Assembly (NCBI GenBank): GCA_964490395.1
Contig: CAZBAS010000002.1
Coordinates: 18,566 to 82,565 of the forward strand
Origin: an uncultured Candidatus Saccharibacteria bacterium
GTDB lineage: Bacteria > Patescibacteriota > Doudnabacteria > UBA920
DNA length: 64,000 bases
Direction of reading: 5' to 3'
A program made the position numbers and the translations under genes. The notes below the pieces were generated by a model. It saw only the letters and a list, made by a program, of their open reading frames with translations, ran no database searches and was not told the DNA's origin. Of this stretch, positions 21,057 through 60,741 are shown piece by piece (the first letter of the stretch is position 1; each line of letters opens with the position of its first letter).

Positions 21057-21120
21057 AGCTGCCGGATTTGAACTGATCACCTGTCCGGTATACGCCGGAC
21101 CGCTCCGCCTGCCTATCGCC

Positions 21121-21196
21121 TGGAGCCGAAATCGGGAATCGAACCCGAGACCTACGCGTTACGAGTGCGTCGCTCTACCAACTGAGCTATTTCGGC
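21121..21196 (-). tRNA. tRNA-Thr (anticodon CGU).
   Basis: Manual fold. Acceptor GCCGAAA/TTTCGGC, D-arm GCTC-AGTTGGTA-GAGC, anticodon loop CTCGTAA (U33, CGT, A37), T-arm TCGGG-TTCGATT-CCCGA, encoded CCA. One A:C mismatch at 31:39. Confidence 0.85.
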
Positions 21197-21246
21197 GCTA
21201 GGCGACTGGCGGGCAGGTCTACCAGATGAGCTAAGCCAGCGCAAAT

Positions 21247-21759
21247 CTATTTATTGACAGTATAATATAGTTTAATCAATCCGCCGTCCATTTGTTCAAC
21301 CATATCAAAATGCAACTTCTGTAGCAGCTCAGTACCTGCAAATATCGGCATACCGCTTCCCAAGAACAAAGGGTGAACACTTATTATCACCTTATCAATA
21401 AGACCAGCTTGAATAAATGTAGCGTTTGTATGACTGCCACCAACCAATAACGCTCGCGCTATTCCATCATCCTCCATTTTCTGAACCATGGCTTTAGGAT
21501 CACCGCTCAGAAATTTAACAGATTCACCAACAGACTCTTTTGCCGTATCCGAAGTTACAACATAATTAACAACGTCGCGCATTGGATAAATCTCACCTTG
21601 GAACTGCTCAAAGGTTTTACGTCCTAAAATGATAGCACCCCGTTCTTTCGCAGCATTCTCAAACGACACAGCGTCAACTTCGGAAACCCAACCGGAACCG
21701 CCTTCGTTGGTGGCAATAAACCCATCTGCACTGGTTGCTATATATAATGTTACTTCCAT
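21247..21759 (-). CDS. Dihydrofolate reductase family protein (RibD C-terminal domain-like).
   Basis: MEVTLYIATSADGFIA...ILGRKTFE...LLVGGS pattern typical of the DHFR/RibD_C fold; 170 aa. Confidence 0.6.
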   Translation of the reverse strand: MEVTLYIATSADGFIATNEGGSGWVSEVDAVSFENAAKERGAIILGRKTFEQFQGEIYPMRDVVNYVVTSDTAKESVGESVKFLSGDPKAMVQKMEDDGIARALLVGGSHTNATFIQAGLIDKVIISVHPLFLGSGMPIFAGTELLQKLHFDMVEQMDGGLIKLYYTVNK

Positions 21760-22011: not shown

Positions 22012-22120
22012 CGTTCTGTGCTGGCGTAAGCCAGACGAAGCCGTATACTAATAGGCCCGCCTTCGCTAAAGCTTCGGCGCGCAGACTTCGCAAGACCTTT
22101 TTCAAAGCTCTTGCGAAGTC

Positions 22121-22194
22121 TGGAGCGGGATACGGGAATCGAACCCGTGTCTAAACCTTGGGAAGGTCTCATACTACCATTGTACTAATCCCGC
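22121..22194 (-). tRNA. tRNA-Gly (anticodon CCC).
   Basis: Manual fold. Acceptor GCGGGAT/ATCCCGC, anticodon stem AGACC/GGTTT, loop TTCCCAA, T-arm ACGGG-TTCGATT-CCCGT, U73, CCA encoded. Confidence 0.85.
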
Positions 22195-26591: not shown

Positions 26592-26715
26592 GTGGTGGTA
26601 AATATATAAAAAAACGTACGAACATTACGAATTAGATTCGTAGACATTCGTAGATTCGTCTCATTCGTCTTGTCCGACATAGCTCTAGCGACGTCGGAAG
26701 ATTCGGATAGCGCTG
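26592..26715. repeat. AT-rich repeat/inverted-repeat element (ATTCGTA units) at the murJ/lepA junction.
   Basis: ...ACGAACATTACGAATTAGATTCGTAGACATTCGTAGATTCGTCTCATTCGTC... Confidence 0.6.
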
Positions 26716-56955: not shown

Positions 56956-58824
56956 CTATAAATCTATAATAATAGGCATTATCATAGGCCGGCGTTCGGT
57001 TTTCTTGAATAAATACTCACCCACATCGTCGCGAATGCGTTGCTGGAGGGTGGATTGGCTCATTTCTACATTTGAACGACCCTGGCTCTCAACCATTTTC
57101 CGCACTTCGTGTTTTACCTCACGAATAATGTCTTCGTTACCCTTCATGTAAATAAACCCACGGGAAATTATGTCTGGCTGGTTTACCAGCTTACCAGTCT
57201 TACGGTCTATGGACACTATAATTACAAACATACCATCCTGCGCCATAACCTTGCGGTCTCGCAGCACTACTTCGCCTATGTCCCCTATACCCAGACCGTC
57301 TACATACACATACCCAGAAAAGACCTTGCCCGCTTTTTTCGCCACACCAGCTGCGTCTATTTCTAGTACATCGCCGTTGTCCAAAATAGGAATTCGTTCT
57401 GCAGGCATACCTATGCCCAGTCCTATTTTCGAATGAGCAATAAGCATGTGATGTTCGCCATGAATAGGCACCAAATACTTTGGACGAAGCAAGCTCAGAA
57501 TAATTTTGTGTTCTTCTTGCTGCGCATGCCCGGAAGTGTGAATGTCGAGCATCTTATTGTATATCACTCTGGCGCCTTCACGAGTGAGGTTGTCTATAAC
57601 CTCTACAATGGACCGTTCATTACCCGGAATAGGTGAAGCCGAAATAACCGCAGTATCCCCTGGCTTAATCTGTATGGAACGGTGGTCGCCGCGGGCCATA
57701 CGCGCAAGACCAGCAGACTCTTCACCCTGCGCACCGGTAGTCATAATGATGACCTGGTTGTCGGGTAGCTTGCTAATTTGCTCTGGCTTGATAATGGTTT
57801 TTGGTTGAAACTTTAAGTACCCAAGCGATATACCAAGCTCCACGTTGTTTATCATAGAGCGACCTACCACAGCAACTTTGCGGTTGTATTTTGCAGCGAT
57901 GTTTAGCACTTGCTGCATGCGAGCAAAAAGCGAAGAGAACGATGCAAAAATAATGCGCCCTGGAGCTTCATCGAAGATACGGTCTATGGTACCGCCTATT
58001 TCCGACTCCGATGCAGTATAGCCAGGCTTAGCTGCGTTGGTGGAATCGCTCATAAACGCGAGCACACCTTCTGCGCCGTATTTTGCTATTTTAGAAAACT
58101 CAGCCGGAGCCTCACCAACAGGAGTATGGTCTATTTTCCAGTCACCACTGTGTACCACTTGGCCAATAGGCGTGGTAATAGATAGTCCTACCGAATCTGG
58201 AATGTTGTGATTTACCCCGTAGAAGCGCACCTTGAAACTACCAAGCGGTACCATGTCGTCTTTTGACACTGTATTAATGCGCACCTGTTCGGCCATGTTG
58301 AACTCTTCCAAACGTTTTTGGATAAGACCTGCAGTAAGCGGCAAGGTATAGATAGGCGGATTACCAATTTTTGGCAAAATGTACGGCACTGCACCCATGT
58401 GGTCCATATGCCCATGGGTAATAAAAATACCGCGAATGTTTTGCTTGCGCTCTTCTAAGTAAGTAACATCGGGAATTATGTAATCTATGCCGGGAGTGGT
58501 TTCGTCGGGAAACGCAAACCCTACGTCAACAATTATAATATCGTCGCCGTATTCATAGACCATCATGTTCGCACCGACTTGCTCGAGACCGCCGAGTGGA
58601 ATTATGCGAAGGTTACGAGAAGTGTTTGGCCGAGTAGTCGCGCCTGCTGTTTGTACGGCAGGAGTACGTCCAGACCTAACAGTGGGAAGAACACTCGTAG
58701 AAGGTTTTTTAGGAAACGGCCTGGAACGACCGCCAACACTGCCGGAGCGTGGCGCTGAAGAATTGGGTTTATTCATAAATAATTTTATATCCTCAAATGA
58801 AACTCGCCTTCTACGCAACAACAA
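56956..58824 (-). CDS. rnj: Ribonuclease J (beta-CASP metallo-beta-lactamase RNase) with an N-terminal basic, low-complexity extension.
   Basis: HGHMDHMG motif, beta-CASP region and a C-terminal domain. The first about 70 aa are disordered and Arg/Pro/Ser-rich; the true start may be the internal Met at about 58776. Confidence 0.88.
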   Translation of the reverse strand: MLLRRRRVSFEDIKLFMNKPNSSAPRSGSVGGRSRPFPKKPSTSVLPTVRSGRTPAVQTAGATTRPNTSRNLRIIPLGGLEQVGANMMVYEYGDDIIIVDVGFAFPDETTPGIDYIIPDVTYLEERKQNIRGIFITHGHMDHMGAVPYILPKIGNPPIYTLPLTAGLIQKRLEEFNMAEQVRINTVSKDDMVPLGSFKVRFYGVNHNIPDSVGLSITTPIGQVVHSGDWKIDHTPVGEAPAEFSKIAKYGAEGVLAFMSDSTNAAKPGYTASESEIGGTIDRIFDEAPGRIIFASFSSLFARMQQVLNIAAKYNRKVAVVGRSMINNVELGISLGYLKFQPKTIIKPEQISKLPDNQVIIMTTGAQGEESAGLARMARGDHRSIQIKPGDTAVISASPIPGNERSIVEVIDNLTREGARVIYNKMLDIHTSGHAQQEEHKIILSLLRPKYLVPIHGEHHMLIAHSKIGLGIGMPAERIPILDNGDVLEIDAAGVAKKAGKVFSGYVYVDGLGIGDIGEVVLRDRKVMAQDGMFVIIVSIDRKTGKLVNQPDIISRGFIYMKGNEDIIREVKHEVRKMVESQGRSNVEMSQSTLQQRIRDDVGEYLFKKTERRPMIMPIIIDL

Positions 58825-59017: not shown

Positions 59018-59560
59018 CTACCCGACAAACTTAGTTACCTGCGCAGCCAATGACTGGTAGTTAACAGCCTCAAAACTGGTAGTATCTACTTCGCACACTG
59101 TCCCAATACCCACCGCCTCATGTTGGCCCAAGTCAACATACCTACCCTCTAAAAAAGTATCTACGTGTCCAGGGTGCCGCTCGCCCGAAGTGACCCTACA
59201 CTTTGCACGATTGAGCAAAATTTCTTCTGGGGCATGGCAGTGCAGCTCTAAGACTTCGGCTTGATATGCATCAACCAATTTTTGCACATGTGCAGTATCC
59301 AATTGCGGTTTGAAATTTGCTTCGGCAATGACACTTCTACCAGCCCTGAGCTCTTTCTCTATAGAGAAAAATAATAATCTAATGGCAGCAACACCAAGCT
59401 TCTTTGACCACTCCTTATCTGACCAACCCAAACTATCAAACAGCTGCTCTTTTATTTCATCCTTACAAAAATAGGGAATTCTAGTAGCTTCAGATATAAA
59501 CTTGGCTAAATATGTTTTTCCCGACCCAGTAGGTCCGGAGACTATAATGAGCTTACTCAT
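59018..59560 (-). CDS. P-loop kinase (AAA/zeta-toxin/chloramphenicol-phosphotransferase-like).
   Basis: Walker A SGPTGSGKTY at the N-terminus; 180 aa. Confidence 0.5.
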   Translation of the reverse strand: MSKLIIVSGPTGSGKTYLAKFISEATRIPYFCKDEIKEQLFDSLGWSDKEWSKKLGVAAIRLLFFSIEKELRAGRSVIAEANFKPQLDTAHVQKLVDAYQAEVLELHCHAPEEILLNRAKCRVTSGERHPGHVDTFLEGRYVDLGQHEAVGIGTVCEVDTTSFEAVNYQSLAAQVTKFVG

Positions 59561-59650
59561 ATAGGTACAATAGCAAATTTACTTAATGTGACTCTACTTT
59601 ACCCCCCATACAAAATAATCGCACACATGTGCGGTGATTTTGCGCAAGTA

Positions 59651-59908
59651 CTAAAGTGCCAAATAATTTCTAAGCTGCTTGTGTAAATAAACTCTGCCGG
59701 AGCCGCTCTTCAAAAACTTCTCACGCCCGAGAGCGTCGGCTTTGAGCCAATATGCTTCGTAGTAAATAAGCCTCCACTCCAGTTTTCTTGCTGTAGTGCG
59801 GGCACCAGTTCCGTTATTGTGCCTGGCAACCCGGGCGCGAAGATCGCCTGTTTGTCCAATATACCAACTTTTGTCTTGCTGGCATTCCAGGAGATATACG
59901 TAGTGCAT
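59651..59908 (-). CDS. Small GIY-YIG nuclease family protein (YhbQ/UPF0213-like), paralog 2.
   Basis: MHYVYLLECQQDKSWYIGQTGDLRARVARHN...; same family as 21763..22011. Confidence 0.7.
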   Translation of the reverse strand: MHYVYLLECQQDKSWYIGQTGDLRARVARHNNGTGARTTARKLEWRLIYYEAYWLKADALGREKFLKSGSGRVYLHKQLRNYLAL

Positions 59909-59961
59909 ATTTTTTGGCCCCGTAAAGCTTGCCTAACGGCTTCGCCACGGGGCTCACGTAA

Positions 59962-60046
59962 AACTCGCTCGAGAACTTACCCATCATTGTAGCAAGCTTT
60001 TGTGGGGCTTGCCACGTGACGAGTGAGTCTTCGAGCGAGTTTTACG
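59962..60046. repeat. Large hairpin (16-bp perfect stem CGTAAAACTCGCTCGA / TCGAGCGAGTTTTACG, loop of about 52 nt) between tRNA-Trp and the GIY-YIG gene.
   Basis: Direct read; the loop contains TTGCTACAATGATGGG (a possible -10 in GIY-YIG orientation). Confidence 0.6.
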
Positions 60047-60120
60047 TGGCAGGGGGTGTAGGAATCGAACCCACGCGAGCGGTTTTGGAGACCGCCGTAC
60101 TACCACTATACGAACCCCCC
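60047..60120 (-). tRNA. tRNA-Trp (anticodon CCA).
   Basis: Manual fold. Acceptor GGGGGGT/ACCCCCT, anticodon stem GCGGT/ACCGC, loop CTCCAAA, T-arm GTGGG-TTCGATT-CCTAC, G73, CCA encoded. Confidence 0.85.
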
Positions 60121-60199
60121 AAGCCGCCCGGGGGCGGAATGACCAAATTCCTAACGTCCAATTTCATTAGACATTAGGAATTGGAAATTGGATATTTTC

Positions 60200-60367
60200 T
60201 TATTTCGTTTCTCTGTGCAAAGTTTTCTTCTTGCAGTGCTTACAAAACTTTTGGAATTCTAAGCGCTTGCGGTTGTTTGCAGTAGCACTTTTCTTGTTGC
60301 GGCGAGACTGGTAGTTCAAGTGCTTGCACACGGTACACTCGAGGTGTATGAGACGTTCTTGGGACAT
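60200..60367 (-). CDS. rpmG: 50S ribosomal protein L33.
   Basis: 55-aa [58 protein letters not shown] with the L33 Cys4 zinc-ribbon pattern (C..C...C..C) and the classic context next to tRNA-Trp. Below the 60-aa ORF-track threshold, so found manually. Confidence 0.8.
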
Positions 60368-60609
60368 ATCTTAATGACCTTTGACGCTTAACAAATGACA
60401 TCTAGCCACTATATACAATAGCAAGCTAATGACCAAATGTAAGTGGTTAATTGTTTTACTTCGCCTTACAGTGCCATATATGTTTCGCTACACTATATAT
60501 AACACTCCAGGCATTACTTAGTTTATAAAGTTCGTAAAGTGAAAAGTTAGTAAAGTAAAACAAATGTCTAACTTTATAAACTTTAAAAACTTAATGAACT
60601 CAATACTCG

Positions 60610-60665
60610 CTCCGCTAAGCGGAAGCTGGACCCGCTAAGCGGGTCTGTCACCACGCTAAGCGTGG
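60610..60665. repeat. Three tandem short stem-loops, each with a GCTAAGC core (CTCCGC-TAA-GCGGAAG, GACCCGC-TAA-GCGGGTC, CACCACGC-TAA-GCGTGGTG), directly 3' of tRNA-Thr.
   Basis: Direct read of the sequence. Confidence 0.6.
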
Positions 60666-60741
60666 TGGAGCCGGCTGTCGGACTCGAACCGACCACCTAC
60701 GGTTTACAAAACCGTTGCTCTACCGGATGAGCTAAGCCGGC
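60666..60741 (-). tRNA. tRNA-Thr (anticodon UGU).
   Basis: Manual fold. Acceptor GCCGGCT/AGCCGGC, D-arm GCTC-ATCCGGTA-GAGC, anticodon stem ACGGT/ACCGT, loop TTTGTAA, T-arm GTCGG-TTCGAGT-CCGAC, CCA encoded. Confidence 0.85.

Follow-up and report, generated by a model that had tools for sequence, protein, structure and literature searches.

Stand-alone Slx1-type GIY-YIG genes and their cognate hairpins at the 3' ends of tRNA and tmRNA genes: a candidate slowly mobile cassette

Why should two genes for minimal GIY-YIG nucleases each lie immediately behind a tRNA gene and a strong hairpin? The question is raised by a 64-kb stretch of the genome of an uncultured Candidatus Saccharibacteria bacterium (contig CAZBAS010000002.1), which is referred to here, over its entire length, as the window. 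ARAGORN identifies four tRNA genes in the window, every one of them on the minus strand, in agreement with the Rfam tRNA model. Two of these four tRNAs carry the only two GIY-YIG genes of the window (there is no third one within the 64 kb), and on that ground alone chance is an unlikely explanation. The initial annotation had described both genes as following a co-oriented tRNA and a strong hairpin on the minus strand; ARAGORN, Rfam, Pfam and the computed folds bear out this description together with the coordinates. The two loci, denoted locus 1 (tRNA-Gly and GIY-YIG gene 1) and locus 2 (tRNA-Trp and GIY-YIG gene 2), consist of the following genes, the two encoded proteins being 38% identical:

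22121-22194, minus strand: tRNA-Gly(ccc) (ARAGORN, Rfam), the left junction of the locus-1 cassette; the same arrangement is present in the related loci L099 and L100
21763-22011, minus strand: GIY-YIG gene 1, 82 amino acids (aa) (Pfam PF01541, E = 8e-14), with a YLKTGSG motif and with homologues
60047-60120, minus strand: tRNA-Trp(cca) (ARAGORN; Rfam tRNA model, 58.6 bits), the 3' CCA of which is the left junction of the locus-2 cassette
59651-59908, minus strand: GIY-YIG gene 2, 85 aa (Pfam PF01541, E = 7e-15), with a C-terminal FLKSGSG motif, of the Slx1/UPF0213 branch

A scan of one genome per species with the C-terminal motif pattern [FR]E[YKR][YF]LK[TS]GSG returned 80 homologous loci from Patescibacteria, Verrucomicrobia, Bacteroidota, Alphaproteobacteria (Bradyrhizobium, Mesorhizobium and others) and some metagenome-assembled genomes labelled Gammaproteobacteria; because the scan relied on this LK[ST]GSG-type motif, the adjacency result is valid for the subfamily that carries it and not for all UPF0213 proteins. 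In 60 of the 80 loci, ARAGORN finds a same-strand tRNA or transfer-messenger RNA (tmRNA) gene that ends 31 to 358 nucleotides (nt) before the start codon, and at none of the surveyed loci does it find one that ends 360 to 3000 nt upstream. Rfam adds three tmRNAs and one tRNA that is cut by the contig end, so that an RNA gene is present in 64 of the 80 loci, 9 of these genes being tmRNAs. Against a background of 2.5%, estimated from the other tRNAs within the same loci, only about 2 of 80 would be expected (binomial P ~5e-87). At least 22 different RNA genes are used, namely, those for tRNA-Met, four tRNA-Ser isoacceptors, tRNA-Ala, -Arg, -Leu, -Gln, -Asn, -Asp, -Trp, -Lys, -Glu, -Pro, -Val, -Tyr, -Ile, -Phe and -Gly, and tmRNA. 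The module made up of hairpins and a nuclease gene at a tRNA or tmRNA end is therefore widespread in several phyla and apparently undescribed: in the open-access literature, we found no description of tRNA-adjacent stand-alone GIY-YIG genes, nor of tRNA or tmRNA adjacency and cognate hairpins of UPF0213 proteins.

The recurring unit, here called the cassette, is about 0.35 to 0.45 kb in size. Its left end coincides exactly with the 3' end of the tRNA or tmRNA gene, and an inverted imperfect hairpin, usually a second, sense hairpin of the same family, and the GIY-YIG gene follow in this order. A hairpin of one of two families (class I or class II; see below) abuts the 3' end of 51 of the 68 tRNAs that precede a GIY-YIG gene, compared with 4 of the 53 other tRNAs in the same loci, where class I is represented by none and class II by 4 (Fisher P = 1e-14). 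The tRNA-proximal copy is inverted relative to the gene, and its outer helix borrows the last bases of the tRNA, usually N73-CCA: the class I junction reads N73-CCA|CG-TAAA...CA-CGTGG and the class II junction reads CCA|GCC-TTC-GC...GC-TTC-GGCTGG. In RNA genes without an encoded CCA, the overlap moves to the last acceptor bases, as in ...CCGCC|TTCGC (tRNA-Ser) and ...CTCCAC|GAAAAG (tmRNA). In dozens of loci the first base of the cassette immediately follows CCA or the cassette extends into the terminal bases of the tRNA, the sequence directly after the tRNA being CGTAAA in 16 loci and CGAAAA in 5. There are 42 inverted and 27 sense class I copies upstream of the gene, 7 sense copies and 1 inverted copy downstream of it, and 27 inverted and 9 sense class II copies abutting the tRNA; in L020, L022 and L036, a further sense copy lies 3' of the gene and ends at the first bases of the next tRNA.

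The two hairpin families were recognised as recurring modules by reading 60 intergenic sequences. Class I, which occurs in locus 2, Patescibacteria and Verrucomicrobia, consists of a 6-bp outer helix ending in CG, an unpaired TG, a variable inner hairpin, an unpaired TTTA, and CG with the partner strand. A regular expression for this architecture has 75 matches versus about 12 in shuffled sequence. In alignment A2, which comprises 36 class I copies, the outer helix is represented by 12 further pair types, and the first pair of the inner helix, which is not imposed by the regular expression, covaries as well (AU 17, GC 13, GU 2, other 2). The covariance model R1 yields 82 matches with E <= 1 in 570 kb, none of which lies farther than about 660 nt from a GIY-YIG gene, and no match in the relatives that lack the gene; within the window, it matches exactly twice, at 60011-60050 and 59917-59953, both in the locus-2 leader. 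Class II, which occurs in locus 1, Alphaproteobacteria, Bacteroidota and some Verrucomicrobia and Patescibacteria, consists of a 6-7-bp helix, a symmetric internal loop of the GAA/GAA type (with the variants GTA/GAA and ATA/GAC), GC...GC and a small loop. Its regular expression has 74 matches versus about 10 in shuffles, 7 of the 10 pairs in alignment A3 covary, and model R2 yields 85 matches, of which 68 lie within 400 nt of the gene in surveyed loci and a 69th, at 22056-22081, lies in the leader of locus 1 of the window. Neither family is represented in Rfam: searches of the window, both leaders and 31 loci, at the gathering threshold and at E <= 1, returned only tRNA, tmRNA and unrelated elements.

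In the window, the leaders of the two loci contain the following features:

60011-60050, plus strand: class I hairpin, inverted relative to the gene (regular expression; R1, 32.5 bits, E = 7e-4)
59955-60048, minus strand: large imperfect hairpin with 32-nt arms that overlaps the inverted class I copy (fold z = -11)
59986-60015, minus strand: promoter-like GTGGCA-18-TACAAT with a TG preceding the -10 box, inside the hairpin loop (a match to the consensus only)
59917-59953, minus strand: class I hairpin, sense copy, GCCCCG-TG-[GCGAAGCCGTTAGGCAAGC]-TTTA-CGGGGC (regular expression; R1, 31.6 bits), ending 8 nt before the ATG
59610-59640, minus strand: terminator-like hairpin and T-run after the gene 2 open reading frame (ORF), kept in the orthologous cassette L101
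22082-22122, minus strand: near-perfect hairpin CAGACTTCGCAAGA...TCTTGCGAAGTCTG that begins within the CCA of tRNA-Gly, a proximal hairpin of the class II type (CTTCGC/GCGAAG)
22056-22081, minus strand: class II hairpin, sense copy, CGCGCC-GAA-GC-TTTA-GC-GAA-GGCGGG (regular expression; R2, 38.9 bits, E = 8.5e-6, the fourth-best match overall)
22021-22034, minus strand: small hairpin CTGGC-TTAC-GCCAG, a module that recurs in the tRNA flanks of L099 and L097

The outer helix of the inverted class I copy in locus 2, GCCACG/CGTGGC, includes the discriminator base and CCA of tRNA-Trp, and on the gene strand this copy reads CCA|CGTAAAA...TCACGTGGC. A repeat search gives arms at 59955-59986 and 60017-60048 for the large locus-2 hairpin (32 nt, 84% complementary) and at 22082-22100 and 22104-22122 for that of locus 1 (19 nt, 95% complementary). 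The locus-2 leader folds at -82 kcal/mol with z = -11, none of 200 shuffles folding equally well, and the locus-1 leader has z = -4.6. The initial annotation had noted motifs shared between the two leaders, and this is correct in part. The leaders belong to different families, R1 matching only locus 2 and R2 only locus 1, but the inner part of the locus-2 hairpin, GC-GAA-GCC-GTTA-GGC-AA-GC, resembles the class II core, and the inner hairpin of several class I copies, those of the window included, has the core GA-GC...GC-GA of class II.

The hairpin class follows the protein. When the surveyed proteins are divided into those closer to gene 2 (W2-like) and those closer to gene 1 (W1-like), 36 loci combine a W2-like protein with class I and 28 combine a W1-like protein with class II, whereas 3 loci have both classes and 5 are discordant (P = 6e-14). 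This comparison is confounded by taxonomy, yet each of the two paralogues in the single genome analysed here keeps its own class. In six loci of Verrucomicrobia (Chthoniobacterales), L018, L029, L030, L031, L033 and L038, class I hairpins lie at one or both sides of the gene, in three tandem copies in L029, and no tRNA is nearby, which indicates that the link between gene and hairpin is more basic than the link between gene and tRNA.

Some class II hairpins are found apart from the gene. Besides the two class I copies of locus 2, the window holds one good solo class II copy (26673-26698, plus strand; TCCGAC-ATA-GC-TCTA-GC-GAC-GTCGGA; R2, 29.9 bits), located intergenically between two genes of the minus strand and distant from all tRNA and GIY-YIG genes; dispersal of the hairpins is not seen within the 64 kb. 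Inverted-plus-sense class II pairs follow tRNA-Thr(tgt) in L097 (938-1054) and tRNA-Thr(cgt) in L099 (2687-2804) in the absence of a GIY-YIG gene. Such pairs may be non-autonomous copies, or else sites that are served in trans; decayed remnants of GIY-YIG genes were sought next to solo hairpins and none were found. Some leaders (L016, 2711-2904; L021; L047, 2393-2610) contain tandem duplications of an entire hairpin module of about 110 nt, a pattern suggestive of recombination or slippage locally at these hairpins.

Judged by sequence and predicted structure, the products of both genes are bare Slx1/UPF0213-type domains of 82 and 85 aa with no accessory domain. Their PF01541 scores are 52.1 and 55.4 bits, far above the cut-off of 22.6 bits; the catalytic Y, Y, R, H and E are all present, and Y5, Y16, G18, R26, H30 and E63 are invariant in 22 sequences. 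The conserved C-terminal motif E-x-[YF]-LK[ST]GSG marks the subfamily. The ORFs end after the catalytic domain and leave no DNA-binding domain, and the homologues, from Patescibacteria and other phyla, are nearly all stand-alone proteins of 80-130 aa. A profile search detects about 20,000 clusters at 50% identity with E <= 1e-3, of which 4,924 have E <= 1e-10. Against the Protein Data Bank, the profile retrieves UPF0213 protein BH0048 (1zg2; E = 2e-13) followed by Slx1 (E = 2.5e-8); likewise, for the AlphaFold model of the gene 2 product (predicted local distance difference test score 90), the top Foldseek match is 1zg2, followed by Slx1 entries, with I-TevI and UvrC far behind. The two proteins have no match in PHROG, no PADLOC family and nothing meaningful in NCBIfam, and score 15.9 bits for TIGR01453 against a cut-off of 56 bits. 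Stand-alone Slx1-like domains represent the minimal form of GIY-YIG proteins, and a fusion of an Slx1-like domain with TrmH, a tRNA methyltransferase, has been noted (PMC1564403). Structure-specific cleavage of branched or folded DNA is a candidate activity of the window proteins.

Comparison with relatives provides examples of both relocation and stability. In L101, the cassette again lies behind tRNA-Trp, preceded by tRNA-Thr and rpmG, and in L001 and L102-L104 it lies behind tRNA-Gln, with proteins 79-84% identical to the gene 2 product in all these loci; that is, the cassette has been relocated between tRNAs. Four of these cassettes (window, L101, L001 and L102) can be aligned over both hairpins and the ORF, beginning with the base that follows G73-CCA, and the homology ends near the stop codon. 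The sense hairpins of the window and L101 differ by a compensatory change (GCCCCG/CGGGGC versus GCCGCG/CGCGGC). At the tRNA-Trp site, the window and L101 carry the cassette and L097 does not, a single example of presence and absence. The RNase J protein of L097 is 96% identical to that of the window (~83% at the DNA level) and its tRNA-Trp is identical, and the order of elements in this relative is tRNA-Thr, rpmG, tRNA-Trp, an intrinsic terminator, a 559-aa ORF, the kinase and RNase J, with neither a GIY-YIG gene nor a class I hairpin; sequence similarity to the window is lost immediately behind CCA and is regained at the start codon of the kinase. In conserved tRNA clusters, the position of the cassette varies as well (Met|Met-Asp versus Met-Asp|, or between Arg(tct) and His). 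In a metagenome scan for L33, 12 loci were retrieved, none with a GIY-YIG gene, but these are distant (<=58% identity) and say little on synteny.

Several features of the hairpins suggest that they act as DNA. Both orientations fit a single model, the unpaired TG and TTTA bases included, which argues for DNA over RNA because in a transcript the two orientations would present two different loops. The inner (P2) helices contain 363 Watson-Crick pairs (98%), 5 G-T pairs and 1 A-C pair, with 22 other mismatches outside this count. In structured RNAs, G-U pairs are usually more frequent. The apical loops are mostly C-GNA-G or C-ANA-G triloops, and GNA-type triloops form extraordinarily stable DNA mini-hairpins (PMC13037366). 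The distance between the sense copy and the ATG ranges from 5 to about 100 nt, such that the hairpin is ill suited to serve as a translational operator.

We favour, with moderate confidence, the reading that these loci harbour a homing-like DNA element, either selfish or domesticated: a site-specific, slowly mobile cassette whose mini-nuclease, of the Slx1 type, targets the cassette's own hairpins, folded as DNA, at tRNA or tmRNA gene ends. Like a structure-specific nuclease, the enzyme would recognise these hairpins by their folded DNA shape, hairpin or cruciform, and breaks or nicks introduced there would maintain the cassette at the 3' ends of tRNAs and occasionally lead to its being copied. 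Binding or cutting of the hairpins by the protein is inferred, as is their action as DNA; the mechanism of copying is speculative.

Several observations weigh against this scenario. The placement itself is not universal, with 16 of the 80 loci lacking a tRNA, among them six from Verrucomicrobia that have hairpins (3 of the 16 have less than 300 nt of upstream sequence), and solo class II pairs occur behind tRNAs without the gene. A domain of 80 aa that lacks a DNA-binding module would hardly be expected to act as a sequence-specific homing enzyme, and catalytic residues that are intact over thousands of clusters are equally compatible with a host function. A tblastn search with the locus-1 protein found 0 copies in 72,556 plasmids and 50,697 phages; together with the bare domain, the lack of PHROG matches and the TIGR01453 score below the cut-off, this makes "homing endonuclease" too strong a label for the family. 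The empty site in L097 is a replacement, by a terminator and the 559-aa ORF, rather than a clean insertion or excision, and no near-identical copies of the cassette were found at different sites among the loci compared. Locus 1 is syntenic in L099 and L100 (peptidyl-prolyl isomerase (PPIase), tRNA-Gly, GIY-YIG, tRNA-Thr and ATP synthase genes), the L099 orthologue of gene 1 being 80% identical in the same context, and the copies at tRNA-Ala(GGC) in the Bradyrhizobium group share flanking genes on both sides. This stable synteny, which the initial annotation had named as evidence that would speak against insertion, implies that any mobility is slow; site-specific insertion next to tRNAs, also proposed there, retains the support of the exact junction, the 22 or more RNA genes used, the tRNA-Trp and tRNA-Gln cassettes and the empty L097 site. 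Finally, the comparison of G-T and A-C pairs between the strands involves very few wobble pairs (the 5 and 1 given above).

It is conceivable, and we put this forward tentatively, that the cassette represents an unrecognised class of minimal mobile element of about 0.4 kb that consists of cognate DNA hairpins and is moved or maintained by an 80-residue nuclease reading the folded DNA of the acceptor/CCA end. If so, this would be a third route, besides integrases and group I/II introns, by which selfish DNA exploits tRNA genes. In a variant of this idea, the cassette would be an addiction module in which the hairpin locks the tRNA 3' end, to be released only by the encoded nuclease.

The main rival, which we consider rather unlikely, places the function at the RNA level, as housekeeping or addiction: the gene would be co-transcribed with the tRNA or tmRNA, the CCA-pairing hairpin would be an RNA structure of the precursor, and the nuclease would free the tRNA 3' end or process its own mRNA. 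Much of the cassette's layout fits such a role, including the same-strand location at a short distance in 64 of the 80 loci, the first hairpin that begins at the mature 3' end and pairs with it, and the fact that the tRNA-like 3' domain is all that tRNA and tmRNA have in common. In the window, the proximal hairpins have no U-run, so read-through is plausible, and a terminator scan detects no terminator-like site between either window tRNA and its GIY-YIG gene; a true terminator is present at the empty site of L097 and none where the cassette sits. The stable placement in the Bradyrhizobium group and the fusion of an Slx1-like domain with TrmH point in the same direction. However, the motif, with its unpaired bases, occurs in both orientations, which on RNA would be two unrelated loops; G-U pairs are nearly absent from the helices; and the loops are DNA-type GNA triloops, not GNRA or UNCG. 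A terminator-like site separates tRNA and gene in 16 of the 64 loci, about half of these sites being a class I hairpin with its own TTTTA, and many loci have a -10 box close to the 5' side of the ATG; in the cassettes related to that of locus 2, a box of the form (T)GnTATAAT lies a few bases from the ATG. Moreover, a trans-acting tRNA enzyme need not adjoin 22 different tRNAs, and we know of no GIY-YIG RNase. Co-transcription of the tRNA and the GIY-YIG gene is possible, yet it cannot fully account for the placement.

A passive origin, which we regard as improbable, would have the 3' flanks of tRNAs serve as safe havens that tolerate insertions and accumulate palindromic repeats, similar to terminators or repetitive extragenic palindromic (REP) sequences, and in which small GIY-YIG genes persist, with no functional link between the nuclease, the hairpins and the tRNA end. 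The gene-less solo class II hairpins, the other hairpins behind the two remaining tRNAs of the window and the resemblance of part of the class I motif to a weak terminator would all be accommodated. Tolerance alone would not require abutment to CCA, and the junction is base-exact across unrelated tRNAs; no class I hairpin is found away from a GIY-YIG gene in 570 kb, none of the 53 other tRNAs has one, and the hairpin class follows the protein clade inside one genome. Coincidence, i.e., two unrelated small ORFs that happen to lie behind tRNAs, could be entertained given the small sample in the window, but with the same arrangement in 64 of 80 independent homologous loci against about 2 expected, it is untenable.

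The slowly mobile cassette that we favour shares features with several known systems. The best matches, in both sequence and structure, are UPF0213 and Slx1 proteins (BH0048 of B. halodurans, 1zg2; EF2693 of E. faecalis, 1ywl; the nuclease domain of eukaryotic Slx1), with the same fold and catalytic residues and likewise no accessory domain; the window proteins differ in forming a subfamily with E-x-[YF]-LK[ST]GSG. SegB is a free-standing GIY-YIG homing endonuclease gene within the tRNA gene cluster of T4 (PMC2330249). The T4-like SegB resembles the cassette as a GIY-YIG gene among tRNA genes, in its variable presence at a fixed site and in the proposed preferential inheritance of the region, but the Seg and I-Tev enzymes are phage-borne, have DNA-binding domains, are more than twice as long as the window proteins and are not described as having hairpin modules. 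In REP/RAYT (REPIN) and IS200/IS605 systems, as in the cassette, an enzyme gene is flanked by a cognate imperfect hairpin whose copies are inverted and whose unpaired bases are conserved, the enzyme clade co-varies with the hairpin family, and the hairpins are probably folded single-stranded DNA; the enzyme there is an HUH/Y1 transposase, whereas the sole gene of the cassette is GIY-YIG, and REPs are dispersed genome-wide, whereas in the sequence searched here the cassette hairpins keep to tRNA ends and to the few hundred bases around the gene. Integrase-type islands similarly target the 3' ends of tRNA and tmRNA genes through a junction that takes in the terminal bases of the RNA gene and leaves them intact. 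The cassette, in contrast, is only about 0.4 kb in size, with no tyrosine or serine recombinase among its own genes or those adjacent to it in the window, and inspection by eye of locus 2, the only locus so examined, revealed no direct repeat of the 3' part of the tRNA at its far end.

Few bacterial proteins of unknown function are as common as the stand-alone UPF0213/Slx1-like GIY-YIG proteins. The fixed grammar of RNA end, inverted hairpin, sense hairpin and gene, in which protein clade and hairpin class vary in step, gives the family its first concrete candidate substrate, so that its function can be tested directly in Bradyrhizobium or Mesorhizobium, both of which are culturable. Should the hairpins act as folded DNA, the cassette would be a minimal nuclease-plus-site system that bears on the role of tRNA genes as rearrangement hot spots and could provide a very small structure-guided nuclease. 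In addition, the two hairpin families are covarying nucleic-acid motifs new to Rfam.

The remaining features in the vicinity of the two loci are the following:

60666-60741, minus strand: tRNA-Thr(tgt) (ARAGORN, Rfam)
60200-60367: rpmG (L33), between tRNA-Thr(tgt) and tRNA-Trp (Pfam search)
59018-59560: P-loop kinase of the AAA_33 type, downstream of the locus-2 GIY-YIG gene and followed by RNase J (Pfam search)
21121-21196, minus strand: tRNA-Thr(cgt) (ARAGORN, Rfam)

The initial annotation held that locus 2 interrupts a neighbourhood in which secE-nusG would be expected behind rpmG and tRNA-Trp. This is not supported, and the cassette did not take the place of that operon: the cassette-free relative L097 has the terminator and the 559-aa ORF at this position, not secE-nusG, and another genome, L026, has rpmG, tRNA-Trp and GIY-YIG followed by unrelated genes, again without secE-nusG. 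In the window, tblastn with the E. coli proteins detects no gene for NusG, L11, L1 or EF-Tu, an absence that is weaker evidence than a match would have been. A functional link between the GIY-YIG gene and the neighbouring P-loop kinase was rejected, the kinase being present also in relatives without the cassette. The kinase is separated from RNase J in relatives (L093/L097) by an extra ORF of 141-142 aa that the window does not have. For RNase J itself (56956-58824, minus strand), the longest ORF has 622 aa from a TTG start and is probably over-extended, its length in the same relatives being 606 aa. Upstream of rpmG, three tandem mini-hairpins, all with the loop CTTAG, directly follow tRNA-Thr(tgt) (60609-60665, minus strand); the first of these, CCACG...CGTGG, begins right after CCA, and the next gene is rpmG, not GIY-YIG. 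Between this tRNA and rpmG there is also an AT-rich block (60517-60594) of direct and inverted repeats of the AAGTTTATAAAGTT type.

The neighbours of the locus-1 cassette, identified by Pfam search, are the PPIase gene and a RibD_C-like gene (21247-21759, minus strand). The latter separates GIY-YIG gene 1 from tRNA-Thr. The syntenic L099 does not have it, and there the GIY-YIG stop codon falls within the 5' end of the next tRNA-Thr (2614-2623). In the window, tRNA-Thr(cgt) is part of a composite region (21060-21242, minus strand): it is flanked by an imperfect inverted repeat (21107-21132 / 21189-21214) and sits between a 23-nt 5' fragment of a tRNA-Thr-like gene (21218-21242), close to the 5' end of the L099 tRNA-Thr(cgt), and a T-arm-like remnant. 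When the insert is removed in silico, a weak cloverleaf is recovered by ARAGORN under relaxed settings, as though one tRNA gene were nested in a decayed one.

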